Origin: Chiloscyllium plagiosum
Lineage: Eukaryota
Direction of reading: 5' to 3'
NCBI RefSeq assembly: GCF_004010195.1
Contig: NW_025214396.1
Span: forward strand, 1-42,916
Length of the DNA stretch: 42,916 nt
Positions 5,575 to 39,320 of the stretch are shown here, piece by piece. Every line of letters begins with the position of its first letter. Position 1 is the first letter of the stretch. Position numbers and translations under genes: made by a program. The notes under the pieces are model-generated. The model did not search any database. It saw nothing but the letters and a program-made list of their open reading frames with translations, and had not been told where the DNA came from.

Positions 5575-5672
5575 CTCAGATGAAGGGCTTTTGCCCAAAA
5601 CATTAATTTTTCTGCTCCGCAGATGCTGCCTGACCTGCTGTATTTTTCCAGCACCACTCTAATCTTGACTCT
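5575..5672 (+). mobile_element. Penelope-derived mini-insert with decayed hammerhead
   Basis: CAGATGA-A-GGGC-TTTT-GCCC-AAAAC then GATGCTGCCTGACCTGCTG tail shared with 21630-21720, 26475-26565, 26740-26832, 36790-36880. Confidence 0.8.
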
Positions 5673-6524
5673 ACTGTTAAAGCTGTCTGCCAGCTGTGAG
5701 TGAACAGGGAACAGACCGAACATCATGTGATGGATGCCACTCGACACGTGCAGAGCGCCAGCCTTCTAGGGACGAAGGCCAATCAACTTTGCCCCATGAA
5801 ATTTCCTCTTAATAGGGATGAGCAGACGACCTCTCTTCAAATCTGTGTCAAATCCAACCCTTCAAAATCGAAATTCCCTTAACCAACCCAGTGTGAAATT
5901 AAAAAAAAAATGCAGCTCAACACCAGCTTTTCATTTTGCTGCTGGAATTATATAAAACACCAGTTTATCACGAAGCCAACCGAAGAGATTTTCACTGCCC
6001 CTTGGCTTTTAGTTCAAACCCAAGTTCAGATAAAACTGAATTGCAACAGCTTTGCTCTTAGCCCTCAGGGTTGAGCTGAGCGGTAATAAAAATCCTCGCT
6101 ACATATTAATGGGATGGGTTAGAGCCAGTTGATTAATTTAACCTCACAGCAGCAGCTTATACACATTCAACACTGCCCCAGTCTGCACTGGACTGAGAAC
6201 AACTCCTTACGCTGCTCTGAACTATCAGCAAATCACAAGTCATTTTGTCCGTTTTGTGTTCAGAGATACTGAAGAATTTGAGAAGAGGCAATCTTGAAGC
6301 TAGCGGCAAACAGATCTTAGAAGGGTGTTTAACATAAATAAGATTTTCAGTTGATCTAATTCATTAATTTAATTCTTAAATTAACTCGCGATTTCCTTAT
6401 CGACTCTCTGCTCCACATAATTTATTCTGAAAAACTAAATGAAGAAGCAAAAAGAAAGTGTCATTAACTGTGCGCTGGCACCTGCAGATACTTACAATTA
6501 ATGTGTGCTAGCCTTCCTGCCTTC

Positions 6525-6793
6525 TGAGATAGCAGGCCCTCTCCAAATCTGGCCCTTTCCACATCTTTGATTTCCAAGCCATTGCTATTGGTAGGCACGC
6601 CATGAACTGCCTAGGTCCCAGGATCTGCAACTCTGTCTCGAAATCTTTCAATCTCTTTACCTCTCTCTTTCTCTAAGATCTTCCCTGAAACTGACCTGTC
6701 CTAATTTCTTCTTTTGTGACTAAGTGCCAAATCTTGTGCTTTAATATTGTCCTTGAAGTCAATCTGGGACATTTGACTACATTAAATGTGCTC
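6525..6793 (+). mobile_element. L2-like LINE 3' end
   Basis: Decayed 3' sequence ending TGAAG...TGGGACATTTGACTACATTAAATGTGCT, typical of an L2 tail. Confidence 0.6.
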
Positions 6794-6874
6794 TGGCCTG
6801 AACATTTGGGAATGCTGGCTTCCAAGTGAAGGGATAGTGAAAAAAAATAATCATATGGACAATAAGAAATTAAT

Positions 6875-7366
6875 TGATTGATTCATTCATTAGCAGTCCC
6901 TTGCAGACAATGATGATTCTCTTCCAAAGTACCGCAGGCTCTGGGGCAGAAGGTCATCATGGGAAGGGGCGGGTGAGGACGTTGATGTGGCAGCACACTC
7001 CTTACAGTTTTTGCCTGGCTTCCGCTATTTCCTGAAGGCAAGTTATGAGTGCCCAATGCCTTCCTGGATGTTCCCCCTCCACTTTGGATTGTCTGGGGCC
7101 AGTGATTCCCAGGTGTCTGTGGGAATGCCGCACTTCACCAGTGAGGCCTTGAAGGTATCCCTGAAACACTTCCTCTGTTCACCTGCAGCCGGTCTGCCAT
7201 TTCGAGGTGTGAGTAAAGCATCAGCTTGGAGAGTCTCATGTCAGTTATGTAGAAGACATGTTCGAAATGGTGTAGCTGACTAAGGGTGGTCAGAGCCTCG
7301 ATGTTGGAGATGTTAGCCTGGTCAAGGACGCTATTGTTGGTGCGTCTTTCTTCCCAGAGGATTTGC
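6875..7366 (-). mobile_element. RTE-clade LINE C-terminal fragment
   Basis: Minus strand reads QILWEERRTNNSVLDQANISNIEAL...GEQRKCFRDTFKASLVKCGIPTDTWESLAPD.PKWR; short-repeat tail (TGAA/TCAA)n. Confidence 0.85.
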
Positions 7367-7544
7367 TATTTAATGAAATCATTTTTTTTGTTCCAAAAGG
7401 ATGTGGGTGTCACGAGCATATGCCAGAATTTATTGCATATCAAGAATAATTAGTAACCTAGTTGCGTGAGACCCTTGGAGATGAGTGGCCATAATATAAC
7501 AGAATTCTTCATCAAGATGGAGAGTGAAGTAATTGACTCTGACC

Positions 7545-8420
7545 CCAGGGTCCCCAATTTTAATAAGGAAAATTACAAAGGTATGAAGTGTGAGTTGGCC
7601 ATGATGGATTGGGAAGTTTTACTGAAATGAATCTCTAGTGATGGCAAAGATGAACTACAAAAATTGCTTAGTCCTATCTGGTGCAAATTGCAAAGAGAAC
7701 TGTCACCAAACTGTGGCTTATCAGAGAAAATAAGAGATAATATTAGATGCAAAGTGAGACAAATAAATTTGCAAGAAAAAACAGTGGATCTGAAGATTGG
7801 AAAGTTTAGAATTCAGCAAAGGAGGACAGGGGATTGACTGAGAAGGCAAAAACACAGTACAGGAGTATAAGATTAAGCTTGCAGGGAACATTAGAGCTGA
7901 CTCTATAAGCTTTTATAGGTATGGAAAGAAAAAGAATTGATGAAAGCTAACATGGGTCCCTCACTGTCAGAATGGTGAAATTTATCATGGGGAACAGAAA
8001 TGGCTGACAAACTAAATTTGCTTCTGTCAAAGGAGGACATGAATAACATACCAGAAATGATGGAGAACACAGGGTTTCCATGAGAGGGAAGAACTGAAGC
8101 AAATCTGTATTCGTTGAGAAATGACGCTGGAGAAATTTATGGATTGAAGACTGATAACTCCCCAGACCCTGATAATCTACATCCCAGAGTACTTAGAAAA
8201 TGGCCCTGGAAATAGTGGATACATTGGTGGTCCTCTTCCAAGTTTCTTTAAACTCTGAAACAGTTCCTACAGATTGGAGGGTAGTTAATTTAAAAGGGTA
8301 AATCTTTTAAGATTGAAATGAGGAGGAATGTCTCTATCTGGAGAGTAGTGAGCCGGTAGAATTCACTACCACAGAAAGGGGTTGAGGCCAAAACATAATG
8401 TGTTTTCAAGAGAAAAGGCT
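7545..8420 (+). mobile_element. CR1 LINE ORF2 internal fragments
   Basis: NFNKENYKGM, SPDPDNLHPRVL and VPTDWRVVN-like motifs, followed by a 3' segment. Confidence 0.8.
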
Positions 8421-8421
8421 G

Positions 8422-9219: not shown

Positions 9220-9223
9220 CAGA

Positions 9224-10128
9224 CATGAGTTGGAGGTGCCAGTGTTGGACTGAGGTGGGCAAAGTTAAAGATCACACGGCACCAGGTTATAGTCCAACAG
9301 GTTTATTTGGAAGCACTAGCTTTTGAAGTGCTGCTTCTTCCACAGGTGGTTGTGGAGAATAAGGTCATAAGACACAGAATTTATAGCCAAATGAGCACAG
9401 TGTCATGGAGATGTGATGATACATTAAACAATTTTCGATCAAGTCTTTCATCTTTTAGAGTGGGATGTGTTAGTTTCTGTTCCTTGATATGTAAATCCTT
9501 TTTTAACATTACATTCTCAAGAAAGGTCCAGCTTTTCTAACAACAGATGCCATCACAGCTCAGAAAATGCATTAAAGTGTGAGGTCTATCTTTGTCCCAA
9601 TGTAGCGTGAGACTGGTTCTATTTCTAAGATGAGATTTACAGAGTTTCACATGGATTTGTGCAGTTTTTGAGCAAAATAAATGTAACTTATATGTACATG
9701 TGTGTAGGAGAGACAAGAGTGAATGTGAGCATGTGAGTGTGCATGTGTGAGTGCACGTGACAGTGTGTGTGTGTGTGTGTGCAGGCTTGATAAAGTGTGT
9801 GTAAGTGTGGTGGGGTATACACTTGTGAGAGGGTATGTGCATGGGTGTGAGTGCGTATCAGAGAGAGCTTGTGTATAAGAGAGAGTCTGCATGGGTGTGT
9901 GAGTATGTAGGAGTGTGTGCGTGCATGACAAAGTGCATAGTGCAGTGGGATCACCTGTAGTGTGACATGAACTCAAGATCCCAGTTACGGCCATCCCCAA
10001 AAGTACCGAACTTGGCTATCAGCTCCTGCTTGGCCATTCCAAGTTGTTGCTTGTCCCAAAGTCTGCCTTGGAGGATGGTCACCTGAAAATCCAAGGCCAA
10101 ATGGTCCGGACCACTGATGTGTTGCCCT
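9224..10128 (-). mobile_element. Penelope-like element 3' part with (CA)-rich tract and pLTR, nested in CR1
   Basis: GHLALDFQVTILQGRL...QELIAKFGT.GDG.N.DLEFMSHY (GIY-YIG C-terminus); reverse complement of 38560-39320. Confidence 0.85.
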
Positions 10129-10520
10129 GAGCATAGGAGACCTAGGGAGGATTTTATAGAAGTGTATAAGATCATAAGAGATATGGATAGGGTGAATGCA
10201 TGCAATCATTTTCCCAAGGTTGAGGAATCGAGTTCTAGAAGGCATCAGTTTATGGTTAGAGGGGAAAGAACAAAAGGGAACCTGAGGGGTCAACTTTTTT
10301 TTACACAAAGGGTGGTACACATATGATTTGAGCTGCTAGTGGAAATGGTTGAGGCGGGTACATTAACAACATTTAAAAGGCATTTGGACAAATACATAGA
10401 TAGGAAATGATTAGAAGGATAAGGGTGAAGTGCAGGGAAACAGTGGACAGACATTTTGGACAGCATGAAGTAGTTTGGGTCAAAGGGCCTCCCCCCATGC
10501 TGTAGGACTCTATGACTCTT
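10129..10520 (+). mobile_element. CR1 LINE 3' end (continuation)
   Basis: EHRRPREDFIEVYKIIRDMDRV...FFTQRVV; tail GACTCTATGACTCT. Confidence 0.9.
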
Positions 10521-12454: not shown

Positions 12455-13110
12455 AGACCATCCTTGGAATATTGTGTTCGGTTCTGGTCGCCTCATTAAA
12501 GGAAAGATGTGGAAGCTTTAGAGAGGGTGCAGAGGAGATTTTCACAGTTGCCTTCCCCCCAGCCCTATCCCACTCCTATTTATCTCTCAGCCCCCTTTGC
12601 CCTCACCCCCCCACATTCCTGATGAAGAGCTTAGGCTCGAAATGTCGACTCTCCTGCTCCTCGGATGCTGCCTGACCGGCTGCAGGGCCTGTCTTATGAA
12701 GAGACGGTTGAGGGAGCTGGGTTTTTCTCATTGGAATGAGGAAGGATGAGAGGTGACTTGATAGAGGTGTACAAGAAAATGAAAGGCATAGATAGAGTGG
12801 ATAGCCAGAGACATTTTCCCATGGCAGAAATGGCTATCATGAGGGGACAGAATGTTAAGGTAATTGGAAGAAAATTTAGGGGAGATGTCAGAGTAGGTTC
12901 TTTACTCAGAGAGTAGTGGGTGCGTGGAATGCACTGCCAGCAGTGGTGATGGAGTCAGATACATTAGGGACATTTAAGCAACTCTTGGATAGGCACATGG
13001 ATAATAGTAAAATTAATGGTATGTAGGTTAGTTTGATCTTAGAGTAGTATAAAAAGCCAATACAACATTGAGGGCTGAAGGGCCTATACTATGGCTGTAC
13101 TGTTCTATGT
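12455..13110 (+). mobile_element. CR1 LINE 3' region, interrupted by a Penelope piece at ~12541-12680
   Basis: RPSLEYCVRFWSP, RGDLIEVYK, RVVGAWNALP motifs; tail CTGTACTGTTCTATGTT. Confidence 0.9.
12615..12650 (+). ncRNA. Minimal type I hammerhead ribozyme motif (Penelope pLTR)
   Basis: AUUC-CUGAUGA-A-GAGC(UUAG)GCUC-GAAA-UG-UC-GACU; core intact, stem III palindrome decayed. Confidence 0.7.
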
Positions 13111-13261
13111 TGAGTTAACATAGGAATGCAATGAATTACGGAGTGATATGTTTTGCCAAAAAATACAGGGAGGTAATACACAACTAAGAGTACTTTTTTG
13201 ACCAAATTTTGATCCTTAATTTGTCATTTCAGACCAAAGTGGGTATATATAAGCAGCAATC

Positions 13262-13610
13262 ATTGCAGAGCAAAAGGACCTGTGGGTTTATGTGGGTATA
13301 TAAATGCAGCAATCATTGCAATCGTGAGATCCAGAAATTTATATATTGAAGCATAGAGTATAAAAGCAGAAGTGTTGTGATAAAATCTTATAAAACAATT
13401 GTTCTACCTCAGCTGTAGCATTGTGTCCAAGTATGGGCACCATACTGAAGAAAGATGTGTGAAAGCATTAGAGGGAGTGAAAAAACTTTCATAAGAATTG
13501 GATGAGAGACTTCAGTTATCCGTATAGATTGGAGAAACTGAGGCTGAAAGGATATTTGAAGAAAAAATATTTCCAGCACAGTTAATAGCTAGGATCTGGA
13601 ATGCACTGTA
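13262..13610 (+). mobile_element. Decayed CR1 fragment
   Basis: YKTIVLPQL..CVQVWAP and RIWNAL-like motifs. Confidence 0.65.
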
Positions 13611-13689
13611 TTTTCACCTCCTTCTCCACCAACTCCTGTATTTAACTAAAACCTTCCTCTGCTATTTGCTTGTCCAGTGCGAATAGAAG

Positions 13690-14130
13690 AAATAGGGAAC
13701 ATAAAACACATGGCTCATCCACCCTGCTCCACCATTCAACATGATCACAGCTGCTTTCTGGTTTCACCTTCACTTTCCCATCCCCTCTGCTTTCCTTTGA
13801 TTCTCTGAGAGATAAAATGTTGTCGAGCCCACTCTTAAATGTATTTACTAATGGGGAATCTACAGGTTTCTGGAGGAAAGAATTCTGAAGATTCACAACC
13901 CTTTCAATGAAGAAATCTTTCCCCATCTCAGTCCGACACCTTATCCTGAGACTTTGTCCCCATATTGTAGTTTCCCAATCAGTAGGAAGCAATATTTCAG
14001 TACCTACCCTTTTGTTGAATATCTCAATGATGTCACCTCTCATTCTTCAAAACTCCAGAGAATTTATTCAGCCTCACACATTATAGGACAACCCCTTCAT
14101 CCCAGATATCAGCTTACTGATTTTTCACTG
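13690..14130 (-). mobile_element. CR1 LINE 3' end
   Basis: MRGDIIEIFN...RTEMGKDFFIERVVNLQNSFLQK. Confidence 0.8.
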
Positions 14131-14149
14131 CATACAATGCAAATACCAC

Positions 14150-14530
14150 CTCCTAAATTTAACACTGAGGTACAACAATTTCAGATTATGATTAATTCTG
14201 TTTCCTTTCTCTGTGCATGTTTTAGTCTCTTACTTATTTGTCTTCACTTTTGCTGTTTGAACAGCAGCCATTCATCATTCCACCATTTGCATCTCCTCGA
14301 GCCTCATCTTTTGTTTCTTCAGCTGACCCATCACAATTCCCTTTGGCTTTGCATCACTCGCTAGTTTGTTCCTCTTTCATCTCCCCCTTCACTTCTTTAA
14401 CCCCCATTAAACCTCTACGTACTTCCAGTTTTGATGAAAGAGCAATGATCTAAAGTGTTAACTCTGTTTCTCTTTCCAAAGAAACTGCTTGACCTACTGA
14501 AAATTTGTGGAGACTTCGGTTTTTATTGCA
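14150..14530 (+). mobile_element. Old Penelope-like 3' end with decayed hammerhead
   Basis: Pyrimidine-rich UTR then TTGATGAAAG...TGTTAACTCTGTTTCTCT...CTGCTTGACCTACTGA. Confidence 0.55.
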
Positions 14531-14674
14531 AATCAGGCTTGTTTTTTAAACATTGACAGACAGTCTATAGTATGTGTGTAAACTAACTAGCCCTCTGACA
14601 CTCCTATCTCTAACATTCAGATTGAACTTGTCCACATGGAGACAATAGTCAACATTCGCTACTCTTCCTATAAG

Positions 14675-14876
14675 ATTAAAAATCACACAACACCAGGTTA
14701 TAGTCCAACAGGTTTAATTGGAAGCACGCTAGCTTTCAGAGCGACAATCACCTGATGAAGGAGCGTCGCTCAGAAAGCTAGTGTGCTTCCAATTAAACCT
14801 GTTGGACTATAACCTGGTGTTGTGTGATTTTTAACTTTGTACAGCCCAGTCCAACACCGGCATCTCCAAATCATGA
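14675..14876 (+). mobile_element. Palindromic Penelope pLTR insertion with TSD
   Basis: 70-bp inverted arms 14676-14745 and 14765-14834 (2 mismatches); flanked by CTTCCTAT at 14664 and 14877. Confidence 0.9.
14749..14783 (+). ncRNA. Minimal type I hammerhead ribozyme motif
   Basis: CAC-CUGAUGA-A-GGAGC(GUC)GCUCA-GAAA-GC-UA-GUG; stem I CAC/GUG, palindromic AGCU stem III, one stem II mismatch. Confidence 0.75.
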
Positions 14877-14897
14877 CTTCCTATCAGAGTTTCTGTA

Positions 14898-15058
14898 AGA
14901 TTAGATTAGATTAGATTACTTACAGTGTGAAAACAGGCCCTTCAGCCCAACAAGTCCACACCAACCCGCCGAAGCGTAACCCACCCAGACCCATTCCCCT
15001 ACATTTACCCCTTCACCTAACACTACGGGCAATTTAGCATGGCCAATTCACCTAACCT
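14898..15058 (-). mobile_element. HE1 SINE, 5'-truncated
   Basis: (AGATT)n tail and ACTTACAGTGTGAAAACAGGCCC...GGGCAATTTAGCATGGCCAATTCACC. Confidence 0.9.
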
Positions 15059-15583
15059 TCAGTTTATTGCAATATTGATAAATTCATAAATATCAGTAAA
15101 TTACTCCTGCCCCTTTTTAAAGTATCAGCACTTAGAAATATCAATACTTTTCCTTAAACTAAATAAATCTCATAAGTCACTAGAGGTCTATACTGTGCTG
15201 TTGGCTGCTTCTTCTTGCTCACTTTATCACTTATCACTGCAACACTGAAAATCCCATTTCTTAAAAAAGCTAAAAGTTCCACCTGTGCCCATGATGATCA
15301 CAAGAAGAACTTCTCCTGTCTGTTTTCTTAACTACTGATAGCATGAATAGTCTATTAACTTATGAAGGCAGTGTCAAATAGTAAGATTATAGTTATATCA
15401 GGTCAGTCTTGCTTTAATCATTTGTGAAGAATGTGAATCACATTCAGATGTAATGATTCAAAATCTGGAAGTATATTCGCAGAATTGCCGAACTATTCCA
15501 CAGCTCCCGTCTAATAGCAGTGTAATTTCCCATCCTCCAATTAAATACCTTCCCATACTGTCTGCCCCTATCCCTCTCCATGG

Positions 15584-15796
15584 TTATTGTAAAGGTGAGG
15601 CAGTGTGGTCACTGTCACCAGAATGCTGTCCCACTTGGCATGGCTCATTGCCTAACACCAAATCCAACATGGCCTCCCCCCTAATTAGCCTATCTACATA
15701 TTGAGTCAGGAATCCCTCCTGGACACACCTGACAAATTCAGCTCCATCCAGACCACCTGCAATCAATATTGGGGACATTGAAGTCACCCATAACAA
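15584..15796 (-). mobile_element. CR1 endonuclease domain, C-terminal part
   Basis: GLDGAEFVRCVQEGFLTQYVDR..RGEAMLDLVLGNEP...GDSDH. Confidence 0.9.
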
Positions 15797-15799
15797 AGG

Positions 15800-15920
15800 G
15801 ATGGAGTAAAGTGTGTCTGTTTCAATGTGTCAGAAATAAGAGTGATGAACTTCCAGTATGGATCAGTACTTGGAACTATGATGTTGTGGCCATAATGGAG
15901 ACATGGATTTCACAGAGGTG
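15800..15920 (+). mobile_element. CR1 endonuclease domain, N-terminal part
   Basis: VRNKSDELPVWISTWNYDVVAIMETWI. Confidence 0.85.
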
Positions 15921-15924
15921 CCCA

Positions 15925-17338
15925 TGTTTGCTGCAGCAGCAGCAGCAGGAGCGGTGAGAGCAAGGACCAGAGGGCTGCCGGAAAGGTAAATTAATCCTTT
16001 AAAAACTTAGCTCATGGGATCAGGGGCCTCCATTTTTGCAGCAGCAGCAGCGGGAGTAGGGCATGGGAACTGCTGAGTCTGTGAGGTAATATATTTGGGC
16101 AGTTGCTTTACCCAAAACTCAACTTAGATAGTGTGTCCCACCCATCCTCCTTCTCTTACCAAAAGAAACGGTTCTGTACATTGATTCGGTAAGGTTACTC
16201 TTTTTGTTGAATAGTCTCTTTGAAAAAGCAGAACAGTGGGAATGGATGCTAGGGCAGTTGCATGCTCCTCCTGTAGAATGGAGGGAGCTAAGGGTCACCA
16301 CTAGTGTCCTCACTGACTTCAGCTGTGGGAAGTACTTCGGGCTCAGTGGTTAGCACTGCTGTCTCACAGTGCCAGGGATTCGGGATTCTCTGGGTGCTCC
16401 GGTTTCCTCCCACAATGCAAAGATGTGCAGGTCAGGTGAATTGGCCATACTAAATTTCCCGAAGTGTTCAGGGGTGTGTAGGTTAGGTGCATTAGTTAGG
16501 GGTAAATGTAGTGTAGTAGGGGATTGGGTCTGGGTGGGATACTCTTCGGAGAGTCGGTGTGAACTTGTAGGGCCGAATGTCCTGTTTCCGCACTGTAGGG
16601 ATTCTATGATTCTTAAAGGAAAGTACACCCAACTCCAGCTCCTTGGAAACCATGTTAGCGATCTGGAGCTGGAGCTGGATGAACTTGGGATCATTTGGGA
16701 GGTGAAGGGGGTTATTGAGAGGAGCTACAGGGAGGTAGTCACATCTCAGGTGCAAGAATGAGGCAGATGGGTAACTGTCGGGGGACAGAAAGGGGACAGG
16801 CAGACAGTGCAGGGATCCCCTGTGGCCATTCCCCTCAATAATAAGTATACCGTTTTGGATACTATTGTGGGGTTAGCCTTACCAGGGGAAAGTCATAGTG
16901 GTCAGGTCTCTGGCACTGAGCCTGGATCTGTGGCTCAGAAGGGAAGAGGAGAGAATAGAAAATCACTAGTGGTAGGAGACTCAATAGTTAGAGGAAAGGA
17001 CAGGAGATTCTGTGGTCACGAACGGGACTCCCAGAAGGTATGTCCAAGGTCTGGGATTTCTCTGATCGAGTCTACAAGATTCTGAAGGGGAAGGCAAGCA
17101 GTCAGAAGTCATGGTGCATATTGGCACCAATGGCATAGCCAGGAAAAGGGATAAGGATCTAAAAAGTGATCTCGGAGTTAGGTTGGAAGCTAAAAAGCAG
17201 GACAAGCAGAGTAATAGTCTCAGGATTACTACTGGTGCCACATGCTCATGAGGCGAGAACAGGGAGCAAGTGCAGTTAAACACATGGCTTACAGGGCTGG
17301 TTCGGGAGTGAGGACTTCAGATATGTAGATCATTGGGT
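15925..17338 (+). mobile_element. CR1 5' UTR and decayed ORF1 (zinc finger/leucine zipper plus SGNH esterase)
   Basis: AVACSSCRM, QLQLL..HVSDLELELDEL, IPLNNKYTVLDT, LVVGDSIVRG, VHIGTNGI, VIVSGLL motifs. Confidence 0.9.
16341..16613 (+). mobile_element. HE1 SINE (internal deletion) nested in CR1 ORF1
   Basis: GCTCAGTGGTTAGCACTGC head, V-domain, GATTCTATGATTCT tail; approximate TSD GGA(A)AGTAC. Confidence 0.9.
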
Positions 17339-17339
17339 T

Positions 17340-17580
17340 CCCAAGTCTTCATATTTTTCTTCATGGTAAACACAGAGAAGAAGTATTCATTGAGGATGAA
17401 TGCCTCCAACAGTTCTACACATACACACCCACTTTGATCCTTGAGGGTCCTATTCTCTCTCCAGTTATTCTTCTTCCTTTAACATACTTAAAGAATCTCT
17501 TTGGAGTCACCCTAATCTTCTTAGCCAAAGCTATCTTGTGTCCCCTTTTTGCCTTTCTGATTACCTTCTTCAGTAAACTC
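17340..17580 (-). mobile_element. CR1 ORF2 EN-RT linker fragment
   Basis: KKVIRKAKRGHKIALAKKIRVTPKRFFKYVKGRRITGERIGP. Confidence 0.85.
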
Positions 17581-17785
17581 AGATAATAATTATCCAGGAA
17601 TGCATCAAGCACCTTCAGACTTACAGTTGGGATAAAGCAGAAGCCAAGTGCAAAAAGCAAAAGGAGCATGCTCTCACACCAACACCCCACCCACCTCTTC
17701 CTATGACCACACTCTCTCCTAGGTGTAACAAAGCCTATGGAAGCCATATCGTTCTGTACAGCCATGTATGGAGTGAAAGAGAGCT

Positions 17786-18135
17786 ATAAGAACATGAGAA
17801 CTAGGAGCAGGAGTCGGCCGTCTGGCCCCTCAAGCCTGTTCCATCACTCAATAAGATCATGGTTGATCTACTCATGGACTCAGCCCCCTGCCCGCTCACT
17901 CTAACTCTTAATTCCTTTACTGCTCAAAAATCTATCTTTGCCTCAAATACATTCAACAAGGTAGCCTCAACTGTTTCACTGCACAGGAAATTCCACAGAT
18001 TCACAACCTCTTTGAGTGAAAACGTTCTTCCTGGACTCAGTCCTAAATCTCCCCTTATTTTGAGGCTATGCCTGCTAGTTCTAGTTTCACCTACCAGTGG
18101 AAAAAACCTCCCTGCTTCTATCTTACCTCATCTAT
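17786..18135 (-). mobile_element. CR1 LINE 3' end
   Basis: ATAAGAACATGAGAACTAGGAGCAGGAGT tail; GAAATTCCACAGATTCACAACC (VVNLWNF antisense). Confidence 0.8.
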
Positions 18136-18722
18136 GAGGTGTCACCAATGATGATGATGAGATAATACTCCCCCCTCCCTCTCCAAGCATTGCGAAATGG
18201 CACGTAACTCCTTCCTGGCCTCAGTTTCTGCCCTGACTCCCCAACAAACTTCAAGACCTCAGCCCTTTGTTCCTACTAAATGCACACAACACCAGCAACC
18301 TCCTTTCAGCAGCTCCCCCTTTTCTGGCATTGCTGCTCCTCCATCACATTGTGGTTCTGGCCCACCTTTGTTGCTAATTGCCTGTCAGCTGCTTACCATG
18401 GTGGTGCACTTGCTTATCATTCCCTACCATTTTTATATGGGTGATTAATTGCTCCCTCTGAAGAACTAACATCTGCAGGCAGCTGAGGGATGTCAAGGCT
18501 TGATTGGACCACCTCTCCCTATATTTTGAACCTCGTTCCTCTTATTTGAATACATTTTGCCCTTGTATCATTCTGATGGATGTTGTACTTCGACCTTTCC
18601 AAGTCCAGTTTACCCTCCCAGAAGTACAGAACCTAAAACTGAGCACAGTGTTCTGAATGGGGTATTTTATACCAGTGTTGCAGAACCTCCATCGTTTTCT
18701 ATAACAGGGCCCTTGCAATAAT

Positions 18723-18985
18723 TGGAGTTTGCATATTCTCCCTGTCTGTGTGGGTTTTCTCATGGTGCTCCGGTTTCCTTGCATAATCCAAAGGTGTGCA
18801 GGTTAGGTGAATTGACCATGCTAAATTGCCCATAGTGTTCAGGGATGTGTAGGTTAGATGCAATAGTTAGGGGTAAATGTAGAGTAGTAGGGGGAATGGG
18901 TCTAAGTGGATTACTCTTTGGAGGGTCGGTGTGGACTTGTAGGGCCGAATGGCCTGTTTCTGCACTGTAGGGATTCTATCATTCT
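18723..18985 (+). mobile_element. HE1 SINE, 5'-truncated
   Basis: V-domain and GGCCTGTTTCTGCACTGTAGGGATTCT tail. Confidence 0.9.
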
Positions 18986-19800
18986 TAAAGGAACTTTACG
19001 TCAGATTTGGGGTGAGAACCTCTCATTAAAGTGACTAATTGCTGCAGCGTTAGCAGATTTATCCTCAATGCATTGTGACATCTGCCAGTCACAAGCTTCA
19101 GTTTATCATGGGATCAATCATCAGAAAGCATGACATGATGCCAAAGGTGGCTTTCATATTGCAACAGCTGTAAGGAAACAAAGTAACAGAATAATGAAGC
19201 ATCATTTTCATTTGAAGTGCCTTAAGCATCATACAATCCAAGCTGGTATCAAGGGGAAATTAAAGGATGAGTGTATGTTTTATTTGAATGCAAAAATATT
19301 AATTAGGAGATTTTGTAATTTGCTGTCAGTGTCAGGAATGGCAATCGATATTTGAGGACAAGGCTGTGTTTGAAATTCAAAGCACTGAACAGCAGGCTTA
19401 GCAAAATGCCTTATTAAGCTGCTATAGATTGGATTGGTGCATCTTCCAGCTGCAGATACACAGCAATTTACCAAGAACTTTCTTCCCGTTGCCTCTCAGG
19501 ATTGAGATAAGCTGCACACTGAGTCTATTGGACATTCACCAAAATGAATAATTCGTCTGCAATAAAAAAATATTTTCTATGAAATGTGCTTGAAAGAGTC
19601 AGCACAGACAGGAAACGTTTCTGAGTCTGCAATTCTATGGAGTAGAGTCTTTACTAGTGCTATGAATGCTATGGAGATGTTTGTGGGTGAATCAGATGAA
19701 AAATCCCAGTGGGACCTGTCTCAGAGGCAGGAGCAACTCACTCCTTAACAAGCTTTGAGGTGAGTTTCTTGCTAGGCAGTGATGAGCTCTAATTAAAGAG

Positions 19801-20089
19801 GATTAGATTACCCGAGGTTCAGTGTGGAAACAGGCCCTTTGGCCCAACATGTCCACACCAACCCTCTGAAGAGTAACAATCCCAGACCCAATCCCCTACT
19901 ATTCTACATTTATCCCCAACTAATGCTTCTAACCTACACACCCCTGAACACTATGGACAATTTAGCATGGCCAATTCACCTAATCTACGCATCTTTGGAT
20001 TGTGGGAGGAAACCGGAGCACCCAGAGGAAACCCATACAGATATGGTGGGTTCCCCAAGGCTGGAATCAAACCTGGGTCCCTGGCACTG
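19801..20089 (-). mobile_element. HE1 SINE (left member of a fused inverted pair)
   Basis: GATTAGATT tail, antisense V-domain, ends CCTGGGTCCCTGGCACTG. Confidence 0.9.
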
Positions 20090-20376
20090 CTGCCTCACAG
20101 CACCAGGGACCCGGGTTCGATTCCAGTCTCAGGCAACTGTCTGTGTAGAGTTTGCATATTCTCCTTATATCTGGGTGGGTTTCCTCCGGGTGATCAGGTT
20201 TCCTCCCACAGTCACAAAGATGTGCAGGTTAGGATGGATTGGCCATGCTAAATTGCCCATAGTGTTAGGCGCATTAATCAAAGGGAAATGGGTCTGGGTG
20301 GGTTACTCTTCACAGGGTCGGTGTAGACTTGTCGGGCTGAACGGCCTGTTTCCACACTGTAGGGAATCTAATCAAA
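20084..20376 (+). mobile_element. HE1 SINE (right member of a fused inverted pair)
   Basis: Starts GCACTGCTGCCTCACAGCACCAGGGACCCGGGTTCGATTCC; tail GGGAATCTAATC. Confidence 0.9.
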
Positions 20377-25330: not shown

Positions 25331-25703
25331 AGATTAGATTACTTACAGTGTGGAAACAGGCCCTTTGGCCCAACAAGTCCACACCGACTCGCCGAAGCGC
25401 AACCCACCCAGACCCATTCCCCTACATTTACCCCTGCACCTAACACTACGGGCAATTTTTTTCTGACTAAAAGGTATCATTACAGTTTCAAAGAAAAAAA
25501 ATGTGGCAGCTCTAGCCAGAGAGCAATTCACCTGACCTGCACATTTTTGGACTGTGGAGGAAACCGGAGCACCCGGAGGAAACCCACGCAGACACGGGGA
25601 GAATGTGCAAACTCCACACAGTCAGTCGCCTGAGGCGGGAATTGAACCCGGGTCTCTGGCGCTGTGAGGCAACAGTGCTAACGACTGTGCCACCGTGCCG
25701 CCC
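25331..25703 (-). mobile_element. Full-length young HE1 SINE carrying a 69-bp foreign insert
   Basis: GGGCGGCACGGTGGCACAGT head, B-box, CpGs retained, (TCTAA)n tail. Confidence 0.95.
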
Positions 25704-26474
25704 ACATGTATCTGTATCTGTAGCTGTATCATGTATCTGTAGCTACATATCATGGGTACAGGATGTAAATTAAATTGCAGCCCAACAAGGGGGCGGGAGT
25801 GGTAATGGGTCTCTAACTTACATTCTTTGATTGCAGTAATCATCTGTATGTTCATTTCACAGAGGTCTGCTTCTCATCTGTGCTAACCCAAGTTTTAACA
25901 TCTACATTCATCACTTTATGTCAACCTCATATATATGGAACTGCTGCAAGGCTCACACCTATAATAACACAATACCAGCAATCCAGTCATTATCCAGTTG
26001 CCCCACTCTCACTGACACATTTCACTCTCTCCTGCAGGACAAGGCAAAGCTGAAGCAGAAGCAGGAGGAGTCAAATGGGTTTCCAAAACTGTGTGATCAA
26101 GTACCATAAAAGATTATTGGTATGATATAGTAACATGGACAGAGGGATTCTAGCAAGCAGGAGAGTCAGAATAGATGAATAACTTACAGATTGATGAACT
26201 GCAACAAGTGTAGTTCTGTGTGACCTCTGTTGATTTTCTGCTTTCTTTCCACAGATTCTGCCAGACCTGCTAAGTTTTTCAGGCAATTTCTGGTTTTTAT
26301 TTCAGTCTCCAGCATCAGCATTTTTTTTTACTATAGACATTAAGACTGCTGTGCTACAGAGGAACCTATACACTCTCCCATACATATCATAAAATATTAG
26401 CACAAATGTACAACAAGTAATTACAAAAATGAATGCGAGCTTTTATTGCAAGGGGTATGGTACCTAAAAGTTAT

Positions 26475-26565
26475 GAAGGTGGTGCTGGAAAAGTACAGCA
26501 GGTCGGGCAGCATCCGAGGAGCAGGAAAATCAATGTTTCAAGCAAAGGCCCTTCATCAGGAATGG
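26475..26565 (-). mobile_element. Penelope-derived mini-insert
   Basis: Hammerhead plus GATGCTGCCCGACCTGCTG tail only. Confidence 0.85.
26528..26563 (-). ncRNA. Minimal hammerhead ribozyme motif (partly decayed)
   Basis: AUUC-CUGAUGA-A-GGGC(CUUU)GCUU-GAAA-CA-UU-GAUU; stem II kept through G-U pairs. Confidence 0.55.
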
Positions 26566-26685
26566 CTTGGATACAGATGGACATAGACCAAATGCAGGCA
26601 AATGGAATTAGATTAATTGTGAAAACCAGATTGCATGGACAGGTTGGGCCAAAGGGCCTGTTTCCACATTGTAAACCTTTATGAC
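26566..26685 (+). mobile_element. CR1 3' UTR fragment
   Basis: CCAAATGCAGGCAAATGG...GGGCCAAAGGGCCTGTTTCC. Confidence 0.75.
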
Positions 26686-26739
26686 ATTGCCCCGTCAGGT
26701 AATACACACTGTTGAAAGCAAGCTGACACCACCTGTGAG

Positions 26740-26832
26740 TCTGAAAATGTGTTGCTGGAAAAGCGCAGCAGGTCAGGCAGCATCCAAGGAGCAGGAGAAT
26801 CGACGTTTCGGGCATGAGCCCTTCTTCAGGAG
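26740..26832 (-). mobile_element. 93-bp Penelope-derived mini-insert with 9-bp TSD
   Basis: TSD ACCTGTGAG at 26731-26739 and 26833-26841. Confidence 0.9.
26798..26831 (-). ncRNA. Minimal type I hammerhead ribozyme motif
   Basis: UC-CUGAAGA-A-GGGC(UCAU)GCCC-GAAA-CG-UC-GA; core intact, stem I clipped by the insert boundary. Confidence 0.75.
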
Positions 26833-27571: not shown

Positions 27572-28620
27572 GAAAACAGAACTCACATTTGTATAGTATG
27601 TTGTAATTCCTCAGAATGTCCAATCAGCTTCAGAACTATTTGATTTATTTATTACCACATGTATCTTGTTACAAAATACAGTGAAAAGTGTTGTGTAGTG
27701 TTGCCACTCTCCAGCACCAATTTAAAACACAGAAGAATAAGGCAAAACATAGAATACAAATACAGAAAAATAAAGAAATAAAGCAAGTGTCCAACTTTGC
27801 AGTCCTTTTTGTTAAGTGCTCCATCATGGGCCTGGACCTGCTGACCAGGCAGGAGTGCCCTTAACTGAGCAACCGATTGGAATAAAAGTTTTCACTCTTC
27901 AGCACCATCCTGCCTCTAACAATACCTTTGTCACTATGAATCCTAATTGTACCTCACCAATGCAGATGCCAAAGATGTTGCCGGGTACTGAACACCGCCG
28001 TGAGCCCACATTGGCTCGCCTCGCCGATGCAGCCGCTGCTGACAGTGCTGGGCCCCAAGCCTGTCTCTGCCGCCGCCTCCAATGAATCTGCGCTGGAAGC
28101 AGACAGGAACCCAGACTCACCTTCGCAGCAGCAGCCAGCCATCAGTCGCCGTTGTTGGGCCCACTCGAGTTTGTGTTGCTTGAACCACTCTCCGCCAATA
28201 CCGTCACTCCCCCCACCATGACTGAGCTTTTCACCAAGAGGTAAGTAAAATAAAATAGAAGAGAAACAAAAGGAGAGAAGAGAGAGAAAAAGGAAAAGAA
28301 ACTAAAGGAATAGTGGGATGATCCCTGGGCTCAGAAGCCCCGCTTCACTGCCATCTTCCTTAATAATGTTTGAGTTGCAGCCATGCTGTTGGTGGTCTGT
28401 CTACAGCAATGTCCCACAAACAATAAAAGAGATGGATGAGTTGGTCAACTGTGTGCGCATCTGGAGACCAGGGAAGCTGTCTGCTGCTCTGTATTCAGTG
28501 TTATTCAATTATTCATCATAATGTTGATCCATCAGAGCAGGCCAATGAGTCATCTGGAAGTGCCCTGTGAAATGGGCTTGGTCTCTCAGAACTTCAGTGA
28601 GGTGCCAGCCCAGAGCATGG
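27572..28620 (-). mobile_element. Decayed Deu-domain SINE split by the 27638-28360 insert
   Basis: Tail AACTCACATTTGTATAG at 27579; ACAGCAATGTCCCACAAACA...CTGCTCT core at 28403-28490. Confidence 0.5.
27638..28360 (-). mobile_element. Unclassified ~720-bp non-autonomous retroposon
   Basis: 5' AAGATGGC motif, CpG-rich body, 3' TTTTCACTGTA...ACATGTG..AATAAATAAATCAAAT tail; partial copies at 4075 and 40775. Confidence 0.65.
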
Positions 28621-30047: not shown

Positions 30048-31412
30048 TTAGAACATAGAACGTAGAACAGTACAGCCCTTGATGTTGTGCTGACCCCTTA
30101 TTCTACTCTAACCTACATACCCTTCATTTTACTATCATCTGTGTGCCTATCCAAGACTTGTTTAAATGTTCCTAATGTATCTGACTCTACTCCCACTGCT
30201 GACAGTGCATTCTACACACCCATCACTCTCTGTAAAGAACCTACCTCTGACATTTCCCATAAACCTTCCTCCAATCACCTTATAATTATGTCCATTCGCA
30301 ATACCCATTTCCACCCTGGAAAAATGTCTCCGGCTATCTACTCTATCTATGCCTCTCATTATCTTGAACACCTCTACCAAGTCACCTCTCATCCTTCTTC
30401 ATTCCAATGAGATAAGCCTTAGCTCCCTCAACCTTTCTTCATAAGACATGCCCTCCAGTTGAGGCAACATCCTGGTAAATCTACTCTGTACCCTCTCTAA
30501 AGTTTCCACGTCCTTCCTATAAGGAGGCAACCAGAACTGAACACAATATTCCAAGTGTGATCCTACCAGGGCTTTATAGAGCTGCAACATAGCCTCACAT
30601 TTCTTAAACTCAATCCCTCTGCTAATGAAAGCCAACACACTATACACCTTCATAACAACCCTACTAACTTAGGTGGCAACTTTGAGGGATCTATGCACAT
30701 GGACGCCAAGATCCCTCTGTCCCTCCACACTGCCAAGAATCCTGTCTTTAACTCTGTAATCTGCATTCAAATTCATCCTTCCAAAATGAATCACTTCATA
30801 CATTTCCAGGTTGAGCTACATCTGCCACTTCTCAGTCCAGTTTTGCATCCTGCCAATGTCCCATTGCAACCTACAACAGCCTTCCACACTATCCATAACT
30901 CCACCAACCTTCATGTCACTGGAAAATTAACTAACCCACCCTTCCACTTCAAGTCATTTATAAAAATCACAAAGGTCCCAGAACAGATACCTGTGGATTA
31001 CCACTAGTCACTGATCTCCAGGCTGAATACTCTCCATCTACTCCCACCCTCTGTCTTCCATGGGCCAGGCAATTCTGTATCCAGACAGCTAAATTTTCCT
31101 GTATCCCATAACTTCTTACTTTCTGAATGAGCCTACGATGGGAAACCTTATCATACACCTTGCTAAAATCCATATACACCACATTTACTGCTCTACCTTC
31201 ATCAATGTACTTTGTCACATCCTCAACAAATTCAGTAAGACTTGTGAAGCATAACCTGCCTCCCACAAAGCCATGCTGACTATCGCGGATCAAGCCATGC
31301 TTTTGCAAATAGTCATAAATCCTGTCTCTCAGAATCCTCTCCAATAATTTGCCCACCACTGACATAAGACTGACTGGTCTGTAATTCTCATGGTTATCCC
31401 TATTCCCTATCC
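30048..31412 (-). mobile_element. CR1 LINE ORF2 (RT) to 3' end, decayed
   Basis: NYRPVSLMSVVGKLLE, DSQHGFV.GR.C.T.L.EF, VYMDFSKVYDKV.H, PQVSVLGPL, HLEYCVQFW; (TAGAACA)n tail. Confidence 0.95.
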
Positions 31413-31592
31413 TGTTCGAATGGAGACTTTTTAAATTCAGTCCAAAGTTAGCACGCAGCACATTGCAGTCACACAGGACATCAGGCACTGCTCTGAGGAT
31501 TCTCATAGTTTTAAAAAGCCTCTTGTTGGCCTGAATGTGAATTCTGAAGAAGAATCACACAATGGACTCAAAATGTCAACGCAAAGTACTTT

Positions 31593-31905
31593 TAGATTAG
31601 ATGACTTACAGTGTGGAAACAGGCCCTTTGGCCCAACAAGTCCACACTGACCCTCCAAACAGCAACCCACCCAGACCCACTTCCCCACATTTACCTCTTC
31701 ACCTAACACTACGGGCAATTTAGCACAGCCAGTTCACCTGACCTGCACATCTTTGGACTGTGGGAGGAAACCGGAGCATACAGAGGAAACCCACACAGAC
31801 ACGGGAAGAACGTGCAAACTCCACACAGACAGTTGCCTGAGGTGGGAATTGAACCTGGGTCTCTGGCTCTGTGAGGCAGCTGTGCTAACCACTGTGTCAC
31901 CGTGC
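31593..31905 (-). mobile_element. HE1 SINE, near full-length
   Basis: Head, V-domain and tail present; TSD TACTTT. Confidence 0.93.
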
Positions 31906-32835: not shown

Positions 32836-33439
32836 TGTTAACTCTGCTTCTCTCTTCACAGATGCTGGTAGACCTTCTGAGTTTCTCCAGAATTCTCTGT
32901 CTTTATTCATCATCAGGGATGTATAGCTGGTCATGAACAAATGGGGAGGCTGAGGTGGGGAGTCCAAACTCACTCATGCTGGGCTCTGTCTCACAATCCC
33001 TCAAGTAAGGGTTAGTATTATAGATGGAAGAAAGCAATACATCAAAACATGAATGAGAGATCAGGCAAAGTTAAAGGAGTGTTTGAAAAACGGTATTATT
33101 TTTTCCAGATTTCCCAAGCAATCAAGATTTTAAAAATATGCTATCAATAGATTAAATGTCCATTCTAGATACCTGTAGGGCCCAATTAACACAGACAAAT
33201 GCAAATGCTTTATGGTGATCTGCACGTCCATCACACCATGCAGGATTAGAAAGGCTATGAGATGCTGAGGTAGTTTTCCTATTACTGCATAGATCGTACA
33301 TACTCCACCAAACCACAGTGATTAGATCAGCCTGTATTTGCAGTGATGCGCTGCACAGTGGAGCACAGAGTGATACTGCTATTGTCAGATTGGTCTTAAA
33401 ACCAGAAAGTACAAATGTTACTTGAAAGCATCTACCTTG

Positions 33440-35774: not shown

Positions 35775-35878
35775 GTTAAAAACCACACAACACTAGGTTG
35801 TAGTCCTTTGTATAACCTGGTGTTGTGTGATTTTTAACTTTGTATAGCCAGTCCAACACCAGGACCTCCAAATAATGA
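35775..35878 (+). mobile_element. Short palindromic Penelope pLTR piece
   Basis: GTTAAAAACCACACAACACTAGGTT...AACCTGGTGTTGTGTGATTTTTAAC inverted arms; same family as 14675. Confidence 0.8.
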
Positions 35879-35884
35879 GTAATT

Positions 35885-36377: not shown

Positions 36378-36881
36378 CCCCACCCGGACGAACCAACCCA
36401 ACCACCCTGTAGCACAGCATTTCAACTCCCCCTCCCACTCCACCGAGGATATGCAGGTCATTGGACTCATCCACCGCCAAACCAAAACAACGCGACGGTC
36501 GGAGGAGGAGCGTCTTATCTTCCGACTGGGAACCCTCCAACCACAGGGGATGAACTTGGACTTCACCAGTTTCTTCATCCCCCCTCCCCCCACCTTGTCT
36601 CAGCCGAATCCCTCCAGCCCGGTACCGCCTTCCTGACCTGCAGTCTTCTTCTTGACCTCTCCGCCTCCATCCTACTCCGACCTATCACCCTCACCTTGAC
36701 CTCTTTCCACCTATCACATTTCCAACGCCCCTCCTCCAAGTCCCTCCTCCCTACCTTTTATCTTCTCCTGCTGAACACTCTCTGCTCATTCCTGAAGAAG
36801 GGCCTGTGCCCGAAACGTCGAATCTCCTGTTCCCTGGATGCTGCCTGACCTGCTGTGCTGTTCCAGCAATAAAGTTTCAAC
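36378..36881 (+). mobile_element. Penelope-like element 3' end (GIY-YIG C-terminus plus pLTR) with 11-bp TSD
   Basis: HPVAQHFNSPSHSTEDMQVIGL...EEERLIFRLGTLQPQGMNLDF; TSD TTTCCCCCATC at 36367 and 36882. Confidence 0.92.
36788..36823 (+). ncRNA. Minimal type I hammerhead ribozyme motif (best preserved)
   Basis: AUUC-CUGAAGA-A-GGGC(CUGU)GCCC-GAAA-CG-UC-GAAU; stems I and II perfect, GUC cleavage triplet. Confidence 0.82.
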
Positions 36882-37060
36882 TTTCCCCCATCTCAGACCG
36901 GAATGGCTTACTCTGTACCCTAAGACTGCGAACCCTGCTTCTATATTCCCCAATTAAGGGAACACCCTAACTAAAAACTGAAAAGAACTGTGGATGCTGG
37001 AAATCCATAACAAAAATAGATATTGCTGGGCAAGTTACTGGACTCGAAATGTTAACTCTG

Positions 37061-37366
37061 GGGCGACACGGTGGATCAGTGGTTAGCACTGCAGCCTCAC
37101 AGTGCCAGGGACCTGGGTTTGATTCCAGCCTTGGACAACTGTCTATGTGGAGTTTGCATGTTCTCCCCATGTCTGTGTGCGTTTCCTCCCACAATCCAAC
37201 AATGTGCAGGTCAGGTGAGGAATTGGCCATACTAAATTGCTCGTAGTGTTAGGTGCATGAGTCGGGGTAAATGCAGGGGAATGGGTCTGGGCAGGTTACT
37301 CTTCGGAGGGTCAATGTGGACTTGTTGGGCTGAATGGCCTGTTTCCATACTGTAGGTAATCTAATC
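37061..37366 (+). mobile_element. HE1 SINE nested in a short Penelope-derived element (36975-37432)
   Basis: GGGCGACACGGTGGATCAGTGGTTAGC head; host element reads GTTAACTCTG|TTTCTCTCCATAGATGCTGCCAGACC across the insertion. Confidence 0.9.
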
Positions 37367-37590
37367 AAAAAACGTTTCTCTCCATAGATGCTGCCAGACC
37401 TGCTGAGCTTTTATTGTAATTTCCATTTTTGTTAAGGGAACATCCTCCCTAGTCTGTCTAGCCCGGTTAGTGTTTTATACATTTCAGTCAGATCCGCTCT
37501 TAGTTAGATCCCTCTCGATCAAAAAAAATTCTCCTTAGAGGACAGAACCTGCTATCTCTGGTATCAGCCTCGTGAATGTCTGCCACAATT

Positions 37591-37637
37591 CCTCCATGAC
37601 ACTTCTTCCATGACACGTCCTCCATGACACTTCCTCC
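37591..37637. repeat. 14-bp tandem repeat, about 3.4 units
   Basis: CCTCCATGACACTT units. Confidence 0.85.
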
Positions 37638-37974
37638 CTGCCTTTCTTAGGCAGGGAGATCAAAACTGCACACAATTCTCCAGGTATAAACTCACCAAAG
37701 CTCTGTATAACTGCAGTAAGACAGCACTACTTCTGAGCTCAAACTCTCTATTAACGAAGGCTAACTTACCATTTACCATCCTAGTTGCATGTTGCAACTG
37801 CCTGTTAACTTTCATTGGCTGGTGTCCAAGGTGACCTGATTCCATTGTACATTCACACTTCCTTTCACTTCACCATTGAAATAATACTCTTCCTTTCCAT
37901 TTTTCACACCTACGTGTATAACGTGATGTTTATCTATGCCATACCTTGCCTTGGCTGGAGTAGGAGTTACCCGC

Positions 37975-39320
37975 CATAGATTCCAATGGAAGTACCATCC
38001 TCCATGTTCTAAGGCCAACAAGAATTATAGATATGTCTGGGACAGACAGCCCATCTCAGACAGCTGTTCCCATTGCATCCTTCTCAGGAGACAGGCACGA
38101 GCTGCAACTGACAGGGTACCGTTCATTGTTCAGTATTTCCCAGGAGCCAAAAACTACGCCATGTTCTTCGCGACCTGCAATACATTAGCAATGAGGATGA
38201 GCACCTCACCAAGACCTTCCCCACACTTCCACTTCTCACCTTTAAACAGCCATCAAATCTCAAACAGATCATTGTTCGCAGCAAACTGCCTGGCCTTCAG
38301 GACAACACCAAACAACCTTGTCATGGTAGATGCTGCAAGATGTGTCAGTGTGTCAACACGGATACCACTATTACACGTGGGGACACCTCCCACCATGTAC
38401 ATGGCAGGTACTCATGAGACTCGGCCAACATTGTCTATCTCATACGCTGCAGGCAAGGATGCCCTGAGACATGATACATTGGTGAGATCAAGCAGAGGCT
38501 ACTGCAACGGATGAATGGACATCTCACAACAACCAACAGACAGGAGTGTTCCCTCCCAGTCGGAGAACACTTCAGCGGTCCGGGACATTTGACCTTGGAC
38601 CTTCAGGTGACACACACACAATCACACACACACCCACACTCCTATTGACACACATGCTCTCTCTCATGCGCTCACAAATACACTCCCACACTCATGTACA
38701 CTCACCCTCTCACAGACTTAAAACCCTTTATACTCATACTCACACACGCATATACACACACTCTCTCACAGATACTCATACACCTCCCCCCCACCCCCCA
38801 CCCCCCCCCCCCCACACACACACACACATTTGTGGCGTAAATTTGTACTTGCAAAATTACATTTTATTTTGCTCAAAAACAACATGAATCCATGTAAGAT
38901 TCTGTAAATCCTTTTTTTACATTATAATCAGTCTGAACATTGGGGCACAGACAGCCTCACACAGGGCACCTCACATCTTCAATGCATTATCTGGGCCAAC
39001 ATGGCACCTATTGTTAAAGTTCCCTTGTGAATGTAAGTTTAAAAAACGTTCTGGGATTTACATATGAAAGAACTGAGACCAACATGCCCATTCTAAAAGA
39101 TGAGATACTTAACAAACAATCCAGGACTTTTTCAGTATACAATTTCAGTTACATCACATTGTAAACTTTTGCTACAAATTCTGTGTCTTACGATCTTATA
39201 TTCCGCAACCACATGATGAAGGAGCAGCGCTTTGAAAGCTAGTGCTTCCAAATAAACCTTTTGGACTATTATCTGGTGTTGTGTGATTTTTAACTTTATA
39301 CCCCAACACCTCCATGCCAT
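37975..39320 (+). mobile_element. Penelope-like element, GIY-YIG endonuclease region plus pLTR (decayed)
   Basis: DRVPFIVQYFPG; SANIVYLIRCRQGCPET*YIGEIKQRLLQRMNGH...PVGEHFSGPGH; (CA)-rich tract; hammerhead with C3A change at 39210-39244. Confidence 0.92.

Follow-up and report, generated by a model that had tools for sequence, protein, structure and literature searches.

Minimal hammerhead ribozyme remnants at the 3′ ends of truncated Penelope-like element insertions in a Chiloscyllium plagiosum contig

Results

Hammerhead motifs in the window

Contig NW_025214396.1 of the Chiloscyllium plagiosum assembly GCF_004010195.1 (positions 1–42,916, the whole of which is here called the window) carries fragments of Penelope-like elements (PLEs), and among them 12 remnants of minimal hammerhead ribozymes (min-HHRs) in four families, A to D. 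Position C3 of the hammerhead core lies at 5577, 12619, 14431, 14752, 21632, 23757, 31544, 36792, and 39213 in the plus-strand copies, and at 9345, 26559, and 26829 in the minus-strand copies; the degenerate motif at 31544 probably belongs to the set. An earlier description made from the letters of the window alone (the sequence-only reading) had listed 11 sites as hammerheads; all 11 are present in the sequence, and the copy at 14431 (+) is one that it missed. Its plus-strand positions fall in stem I, 0–4 nt before C3, and its minus-strand positions near the low coordinate of the motif, and the cut site that it placed at 36819/36820 is the correct predicted position.

The core (C3-U4-G5-A6-N7-G8-A9, G12-A13-A14-A15.1, and U16.1-H17) is unaltered in six of the 12 copies, and all of them have a single unpaired nucleotide between A9 and position 10.1. 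The 10.1-11.1 pair is G-C in eight copies, G.U in two, and G.A and A-U in one each. Stem I is short and open, the type I topology, with 2.1-1.1 paired in 12/12 copies and 2.2-1.2 in 11/12. A palindrome had been described in place of stem III, and positions 15.2/16.2 are indeed palindromic (CG or GC) in seven copies; the remaining five have TG or CA, which are CpG-decay products, and these include 12619 (AUGU) and 26559 (ACAU). The six motifs that had been singled out as good all keep the 11 core bases, but there are flaws among them in the palindrome or in stem II. Counting a copy as fully intact when the core, G10.1-C11.1, and the palindrome are all kept, three of the 12 are intact (23757+, 26829−, and 36792+), and nine are damaged.

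A strict sequence pattern (CTGANGA-N10-24-GAAA-SS-TH) has four matches in the window compared with 0.07 expected, a number reached in 0/100 shuffles, and a looser version with NN has seven compared with 0.38. A structure descriptor has five matches, where 200 shuffles give a mean of 0.015, and a second version that requires the palindrome has three, where the same number of shuffles gives 0.005. Across nine pair positions in the 12 copies, 89 of the 108 cells are paired, compared with a mean of 62 and a maximum of 75 in shuffled data (0/5000), and there are up to three to four Watson-Crick types per position. A MAFFT alignment across families, in which family B is out of register, was left out of these counts. 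The paired cells and the compensatory stems favor the stem covariation put forward by the sequence-only reading; because the rows are related and the families only four, the result is supportive rather than of R-scape grade.

Chance matching is already refuted as an explanation for families A–C, and for the motifs as a whole we put its probability close to nil. One of the seven loose matches (13885) lacks a stem, and 31544 and 14431 are decayed enough that either could be misread, but the descriptor count (five against 0.015), the compensatory stems, and the fixed placement of the motifs relative to the ends of PLE open reading frames (ORFs) all argue against it. The Hammerhead_1 search that had been proposed as a check would not work, as neither the whole window nor a 121-nt stretch matches any Rfam hammerhead family at E ≤ 10, and in this the motifs differ from the canonical type I hammerheads of those models.

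Carrier elements and families

Coding remnants of PLEs adjoin the motifs of families A, B, and C, in agreement with the earlier proposal that the hosts are the pseudo-long terminal repeats (pLTRs) of at least three PLE families. Upstream of three of the motifs lie ORF fragments with matches to annotated Chiloscyllium punctatum and Hemiscyllium ocellatum proteins, whose RVT_1 and GIY-YIG matches are weak and below Pfam cut-offs, with YIDD/YVDD and Y..YIG motifs visible. In tblastn searches with these shark reverse transcriptase (RT) plus GIY-YIG proteins, family A is matched at 36382–36573 (67% identity), family B at 38080–38624 and 10166–10026 (up to 80% identity), and family C at 23576–23770 (91% identity); a full PLE ORF is not present anywhere in the window.

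The best hammerhead of the window belongs to family A and lies at 36792–36819 (+), with a 4-bp stem I, a GGGC/GCCC stem II, an ACGU palindrome, and C17. Its carrier is a 5′-truncated copy (36378–36881, +) with an 11-bp target-site duplication (TSD), in which the endonuclease C terminus (36382–36573) is followed by a C-rich 3′ untranslated region (UTR), the hammerhead, and a tail. The copy at 12545–12683 (+) lies within a fragment of a CR1-type long interspersed nuclear element (LINE), and its hammerhead (12619–12646, +) has an intact core, a palindrome decayed to AUGU, and a stem II (GAGC/GCUC) that is compensatory relative to GGGC/GCCC. We note that the tail of this copy resembles the flanking CR1-type LINE at the 3′ junction, which may be homology-mediated. 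A further plus-strand copy (21534–21758, ends approximate) has a dead hammerhead (21632–21659, +; G12>A). Two short copies are on the minus strand: 26464–26564 (ends approximate), which starts about 5 nt before C3 and has a hammerhead (26559–26532, −) with an intact core, ACAU, and G.U at both 10.1-11.1 and 10.2-11.2; and 26740–26832, a 93-nt insertion with a 9-bp TSD, which starts 3 nt before C3 and has an intact hammerhead (26829–26802, −). Stem I of the latter is limited to 2 bp, since host DNA makes up part of its 5′ strand. Another 93-nt insertion (5577–5669, +) starts at C3 and has a 6-bp TSD, a length common by chance; its hammerhead (5577–5604, +) is dead, with U4>A, G12>A, and ACAU.

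Family B includes a 5′-truncated 1.2-kb copy (38082–39316, +; 12-bp TSD) with the end of the RT thumb, a CHGRCCKMC linker, a GIY-YIG region (38080–38624, +) with two stops and one frameshift, a CA-rich UTR, and a hammerhead (39213–39241, +) that is dead (C3>A). A 5′-truncated copy on the minus strand (9220–10167; 10-bp TSD) has a C-terminal remnant of the endonuclease (10166–10026) and a dead hammerhead (9345–9317, −; A6>U and G12>A). Two other family B elements are fold-backs, and adjacent inverted 5′-truncated copies are common for PLEs (Craig et al. 2021, PMC8557442). In the first (14672–14876, +; 8-bp TSD), an inverted 5′-truncated arm is joined to a forward arm (14744–14876) whose hammerhead (14752–14780, +) has an intact core and a G.A mismatch at 10.1-11.1. 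This hammerhead is predicted to be locked in a hairpin of ~65 bp, with the fold-back predicted at −127 kcal/mol (z −22.6); here and below, folding energies are nearest-neighbor secondary-structure estimates, calculated without Mg2+, tertiary contacts, or protein. The second (35775–35879, +) is tail only, without a hammerhead, and has a weak 6-bp TSD. The ~65-bp arms of 14672–14876 are near-perfect and have private variants in common, and if transcribed, this element could be a source of endogenous small interfering RNA. Rfam matches to MIR860, MIR845, and mir-39 at 14682–14829, all below gathering score, were rejected because they reflect only this fold-back.

The single family C copy (23576–23830, +) lies within a CR1-type fragment and comprises the last 65 ORF codons, a hammerhead (23757–23790, +), and an AC-rich tail. 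Core and ACGU are intact, one A.G mismatch interrupts stem II, and position 17 is U. An ATG at 23763, inside the hammerhead, opens a frame that resembles the N terminus of a full-length 832-aa relative (P0020) and, as the frame of a next unit, stops at codon 11. The 34 nt from 23757 to 23790 do triple duty: they end the ORF with its last codons and stop, make up the hammerhead, and provide the start codon for the ORF of the next unit. The Poseidon element of Anolis carolinensis (PAc; Frangieh et al. 2024, PMC11167929) likewise has an ORF start inside its hammerhead and an AC-rich tail; its cut site is 26 bp downstream from its start codon, and N17 of family C is base 28 when the A of the ATG is taken as base 1. 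Unlike PAc, the family C copy is a dead fragment of 255 nt. In Chiloscyllium punctatum, two gene models, NT5DC1 isoform X3 (P0011) and MAP3K7 isoform X3 (P0015), end in family C endonuclease sequence, and these endings are either exonized PLE fragments or annotation artifacts.

Neptune PLEs are recognized by a CX2-5CxxC linker between the RT and the GIY-YIG domain at the C terminus (PMC8557442), and we used this zinc-finger motif as the only means of telling Neptune from Poseidon. A CX4CX2C linker is found in family B, within the window, and in a family A relative (P0017), and it is absent from the family C relatives P0009, P0014, and P0020. By this motif, families A and B are classed as Neptune-type, although they may be Nematis, and family C as Penelope/Poseidon-type, with a C-terminal GIY-YIG without the linker and an ORF start within the hammerhead. 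Families A and B also have in common with Neptune-clade PLEs (PMC8557442) 5′ truncation, an adjacent inverted copy, and a tail; they differ in being placed by motif alone. A search of PDB found no named PLE reference and no relative of P0009.

Family D is tied to family A by the similarity of its tail and is likely a fourth PLE family. The remnant at 14425–14536 (+), overlooked by the sequence-only reading, has a heavily decayed hammerhead (14431–14459, +; C3>U, G12>A, and A15.1>G) with an intact 4-bp stem I. A probable D-like remnant at 31540–31581 (+), for which no tail or TSD was found, has the hammerhead at 31544–31577 (+), with G12>A, AUGU, and one stem II mismatch. Three other remnants are tail only: 26231–26326 (+); 32836–32916 (+), where the likeness to 14431 sets in some 4 nt ahead of the predicted cut site; and 37366–37438 (+), directly behind the end of a short interspersed nuclear element (SINE).

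Insertion structure

The motif copies are separate 5′-truncated insertions, several of them bounded by TSDs. Among 12 elements tested, five (26740–26832, 36378–36881, 14672–14876, 38082–39316, and 9220–10167) have TSDs of 8–12 bp and two more have a TSD of 6 bp; next to the expected ends of the remaining five, the search found nothing convincing. Control trials with windows of 25 and 55 nt gave a match of at least 8 bp in 159/5000 cases and of at least 6 bp in 1320/5000, so the 6-bp TSDs are weak.

Four of the 10 hammerhead-bearing copies of families A–C have a 5′ start 0–8 nt upstream of C3; these starts are set by the TSD at 5577 and 26829 and by alignment at 26559 and in the forward arm of 14752. 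The other six reach from ~75 to 1130 nt upstream. Both of the TSD-bounded copies that start near C3 (5577–5669 and 26740–26832) are 93 nt long. A profile search found no copy starting at the cut site in families A and B, and family C has its single copy; the three tail-only remnants of family D start near the cut site and are too decayed to call.

The short copies could be taken for a non-autonomous family, of retrozymes or SINE-like, with replication via self-cleaved circular RNA. The equal length of two TSD-bounded copies and the clustering of starts within 8 nt upstream of C3 fit such a family, and non-LTR (long terminal repeat) retrozymes, which like the window copies have pLTR-derived type I hammerheads, have been reported in one chondrichthyan (Li, Clavereau and Pollet 2026, bioRxiv 10.64898/2026.07.22.740005). 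However, no tandem array in the window holds the motif, and the copies are therefore not retrozymes as that preprint defines them, with at least two tandem units carrying complete hammerheads. The copies 26559 and 26829, which are 270 nt apart, do not form a tandem unit because 26829 has its own TSD. The tail is the same in short and long copies, which form a continuous series with the ORF-bearing ones. The short copies begin upstream of the core, whereas a cleaved monomer would have its first base at the cut site, 28 nt downstream. We consider this alternative extremely unlikely.

Pairing between copies

A double hammerhead is built from two copies: the core supplied by one pairs with the UH site and the stem I strand supplied by its partner, and stems I and III each join one copy to the other (PMC4209133). 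The sequence-only reading proposed that same-strand copies within one long transcript across the locus pair in this way and cut it, and we scored the 22 same-strand ordered pairs that have a usable core, leaving out the family D rows. All 14 cross-family pairs fail in stem III or in the first stem I pair. Four of the eight same-family pairs, 9–24 kb apart, pass on paper, with stem III fully paired and stem I of at least 2 bp; three fail, and one, on the minus strand with its copies 270 nt apart (26559 to 26829), is marginal. In the marginal pair, stem III contains a mismatch and stem II is weakened by G.U, and the active fold is predicted to lie 13.9 kcal/mol above the ensemble (P about 1e-10). 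Although these five pairs are what such a transcript would use, the four compatible ones are far apart and the near one is uphill, and even adjacent dimers are described as poor at cleavage (PMC4209133). No Pfam host exon is present among 285 non-repeat ORFs of at least 45 aa, shorter exons being missed at that threshold; the sole Pfam match among them is a LINE RT, and an ORF at 27957–28301 (−) has low Atlas scores only. Pairing and cutting within one transcript is therefore a weak proposition, and we consider it very unlikely.

For homodimers formed in trans, the double hammerhead is predicted to lie above two monomers by 1.1 kcal/mol for 36792, 14.1 kcal/mol for 26829, and 9.9 kcal/mol for 23757; the 36792 copy also has an alternative dimer that is predicted to be 5 kcal/mol more stable.

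Decay of the core

In family A, the three CpG sites of the core are decayed in 9/18 cases and the two CpG sites of the tail in 6/11. The two proportions are alike, so the CpG sites show no trace of selection after insertion, and the pattern is consistent with neutral decay. Compensatory changes are mostly between families, with one (GAGC/GCUC) within family A.

Origin and fate of the copies

It is very probable that the motifs are minimal type I hammerheads at the 3′ ends of separate 5′-truncated PLE insertions, and that the copies in the window are likely inert relics. The motif follows the remnant of a PLE endonuclease or its 3′ UTR, and a tail specific to the family comes after it. By analogy with the anole Poseidon, the element protein would start reverse transcription in the tail, 60–100 nt downstream of the hammerhead, on a template RNA that is uncleaved, and with such a start almost any insertion, however short, would carry the motif. 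In an active tandem source element, two identical hammerheads may pair through the ACGU or AGCU palindrome and cut the multimeric RNA, probably with the assistance of the element protein; that the compensatory changes are mostly between families points to selection on such source elements, which would have made these stems. After insertion, the CpG-rich core appears to decay as fast as the tail, as judged from a small number of copies, and since lone copies have no partner, read-through RNA should be cleaved little or not at all. We speculate that the protein may sometimes act on the tail lying close to the 5′ end of the mRNA that encodes it; in that case run-off copies would record where the transcript begins, and this could explain the 5′ starts at −8 to 0.

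Several observations weigh against this account. The relatives P0004 and P0016 are without an intact linker, the family A linker is seen through P0017 only, and the clade names rest on one motif rather than on a tree against named references. There is no coding remnant of family D in the window, so its status as a PLE rests on tail similarity. The pairs that pass on paper are all on the plus strand (12619 to 21632, 12619 to 36792, 36792 to 12619, and 36792 to 21632), and as its homodimer is predicted only 1.1 kcal/mol above two monomers, 36792 could cleave in vitro. Non-CpG changes are fewer in the core (1/60) than in the tail (10/186), a difference that is not significant (p=0.30) and whose ascertainment favors intact cores, and with six family A copies the comparison has little power.

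Cleavage by the PAc hammerhead requires the protein of the element itself, and hammerhead mutants still insert in vitro, so that the hammerhead is dispensable there (PMC11167929). That the PAc protein activates its hammerhead in vitro is also a point in favor of a different fate for the shark copies, in which intact ones are cut in trans, by abundant same-family PLE RNA or with the aid of PLE protein, and host nuclear RNA is trimmed across the genome by the ribozyme load. A substrate half needs just NN-U-H and a short stem I strand, and local density is high, with 12 remnants and three intact copies in the 42.4 kb used as the density base, although this is one window chosen for its hammerheads. 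The interface, however, would be only 4 bp of stem III and 2–4 bp of stem I. In each of the three intact copies, competing folds are predicted to lie below the double-hammerhead one, neither selection to keep intact cores nor selection to remove them is apparent, and in the anole RNA-seq data no reads end at the cut site (PMC11167929). Cutting in trans is thus decidedly unlikely; cleavage of host RNA at sites of this kind would be a genome-wide effect new for a retroelement ribozyme.

Relation to known hammerheads and genomic load

The intact copies match exactly the min-HHR consensus published for metazoans (CUGANGAH-G..C-GAAAN-palindrome-NUH; Cervera and de la Peña 2014, PMC4209133). As in known metazoan PLE motifs, the core has one extra nucleotide, G10.1-C11.1, GAAA, a palindromic 15.2/16.2, UH, and a short open stem I, and the motifs lie in pLTRs, mostly as dispersed single copies from truncated PLEs, with several families per genome; stem II differs, being 4–6 bp in the window. 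A min-HHR monomer is reported not to cleave and dimers are cleaved weakly (PMC4209133), and a review passage citing Lunse et al. likewise describes an inactive monomer and weak dimers. Thousands of dispersed single copies per genome are reported in fishes, the coelacanth (~4,000), and Xenopus (~9,000) (PMC4209133); cartilaginous fish were not found in the part and the searchable file of its supplement that we covered. We found no paper on shark PLE hammerheads, although further supplements and Repbase or Dfam may hold such motifs. The window copies extend the known class to four families in a carpet-shark-type genome, mostly as fossils, and change no concept. The fossil state of most copies matters for repeat annotation, and a genome rich in copies of varied age makes both selection on solo copies and the nature of insertion 5′ ends (transcript start or cut site) testable.

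Densities in the window, which was selected for the feature, are 283 remnants (95% CI [confidence interval] 146–494), 71 intact copies (95% CI 15–207), and 118 descriptor matches (CI 38–275) per Mb. For a genome of the Chiloscyllium plagiosum type, which we take to be several Gb in size, extrapolation from this one window would give ~10^5 intact motifs genome-wide, well above the coelacanth and Xenopus counts, so that the very large load suggested by the sequence-only reading is plausible; the local density likewise looks higher than the published loads. A bolder combination is unlikely: that shark genomes have ~10^5 intact minimal hammerheads, the largest vertebrate load known, that copies like 36792, when transcribed, are cut in trans by PLE RNA or PLE protein, and that the 0–8-nt starts map the true RNA 5′ end with the hammerhead uncut.

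Further copies for covariation were sought in two contig collections, with no match among the viral contigs and two among the metagenome contigs. One (L001, 252–306, −) is a min-HHR-like motif with a GAUCC/GGAUC stem II, in a eukaryote-looking contig rich in CA repeats. The other (L002, 501–535, +) fits the core, with a GAGC/GCUC stem II and ACGU-C, but lies in bacterial-looking DNA and is probably a chance match given the size of the collection; it was not used.

Other repeats in the window

About 25% of the window is self-repeated. A SINE family of ~300 nt is abundant (for example, at 16340–16621, 19803–20216, 25329–25698, 31592–31905, and 37061–37378) and resembles the shark V-SINE HE1. CR1-type LINE fragments are also present, one with a 195-aa RT frame at 30967–31554 (−). 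A G-rich 30-bp minisatellite extends from 41129 to 41900, across a 512-N gap (41266–41777).

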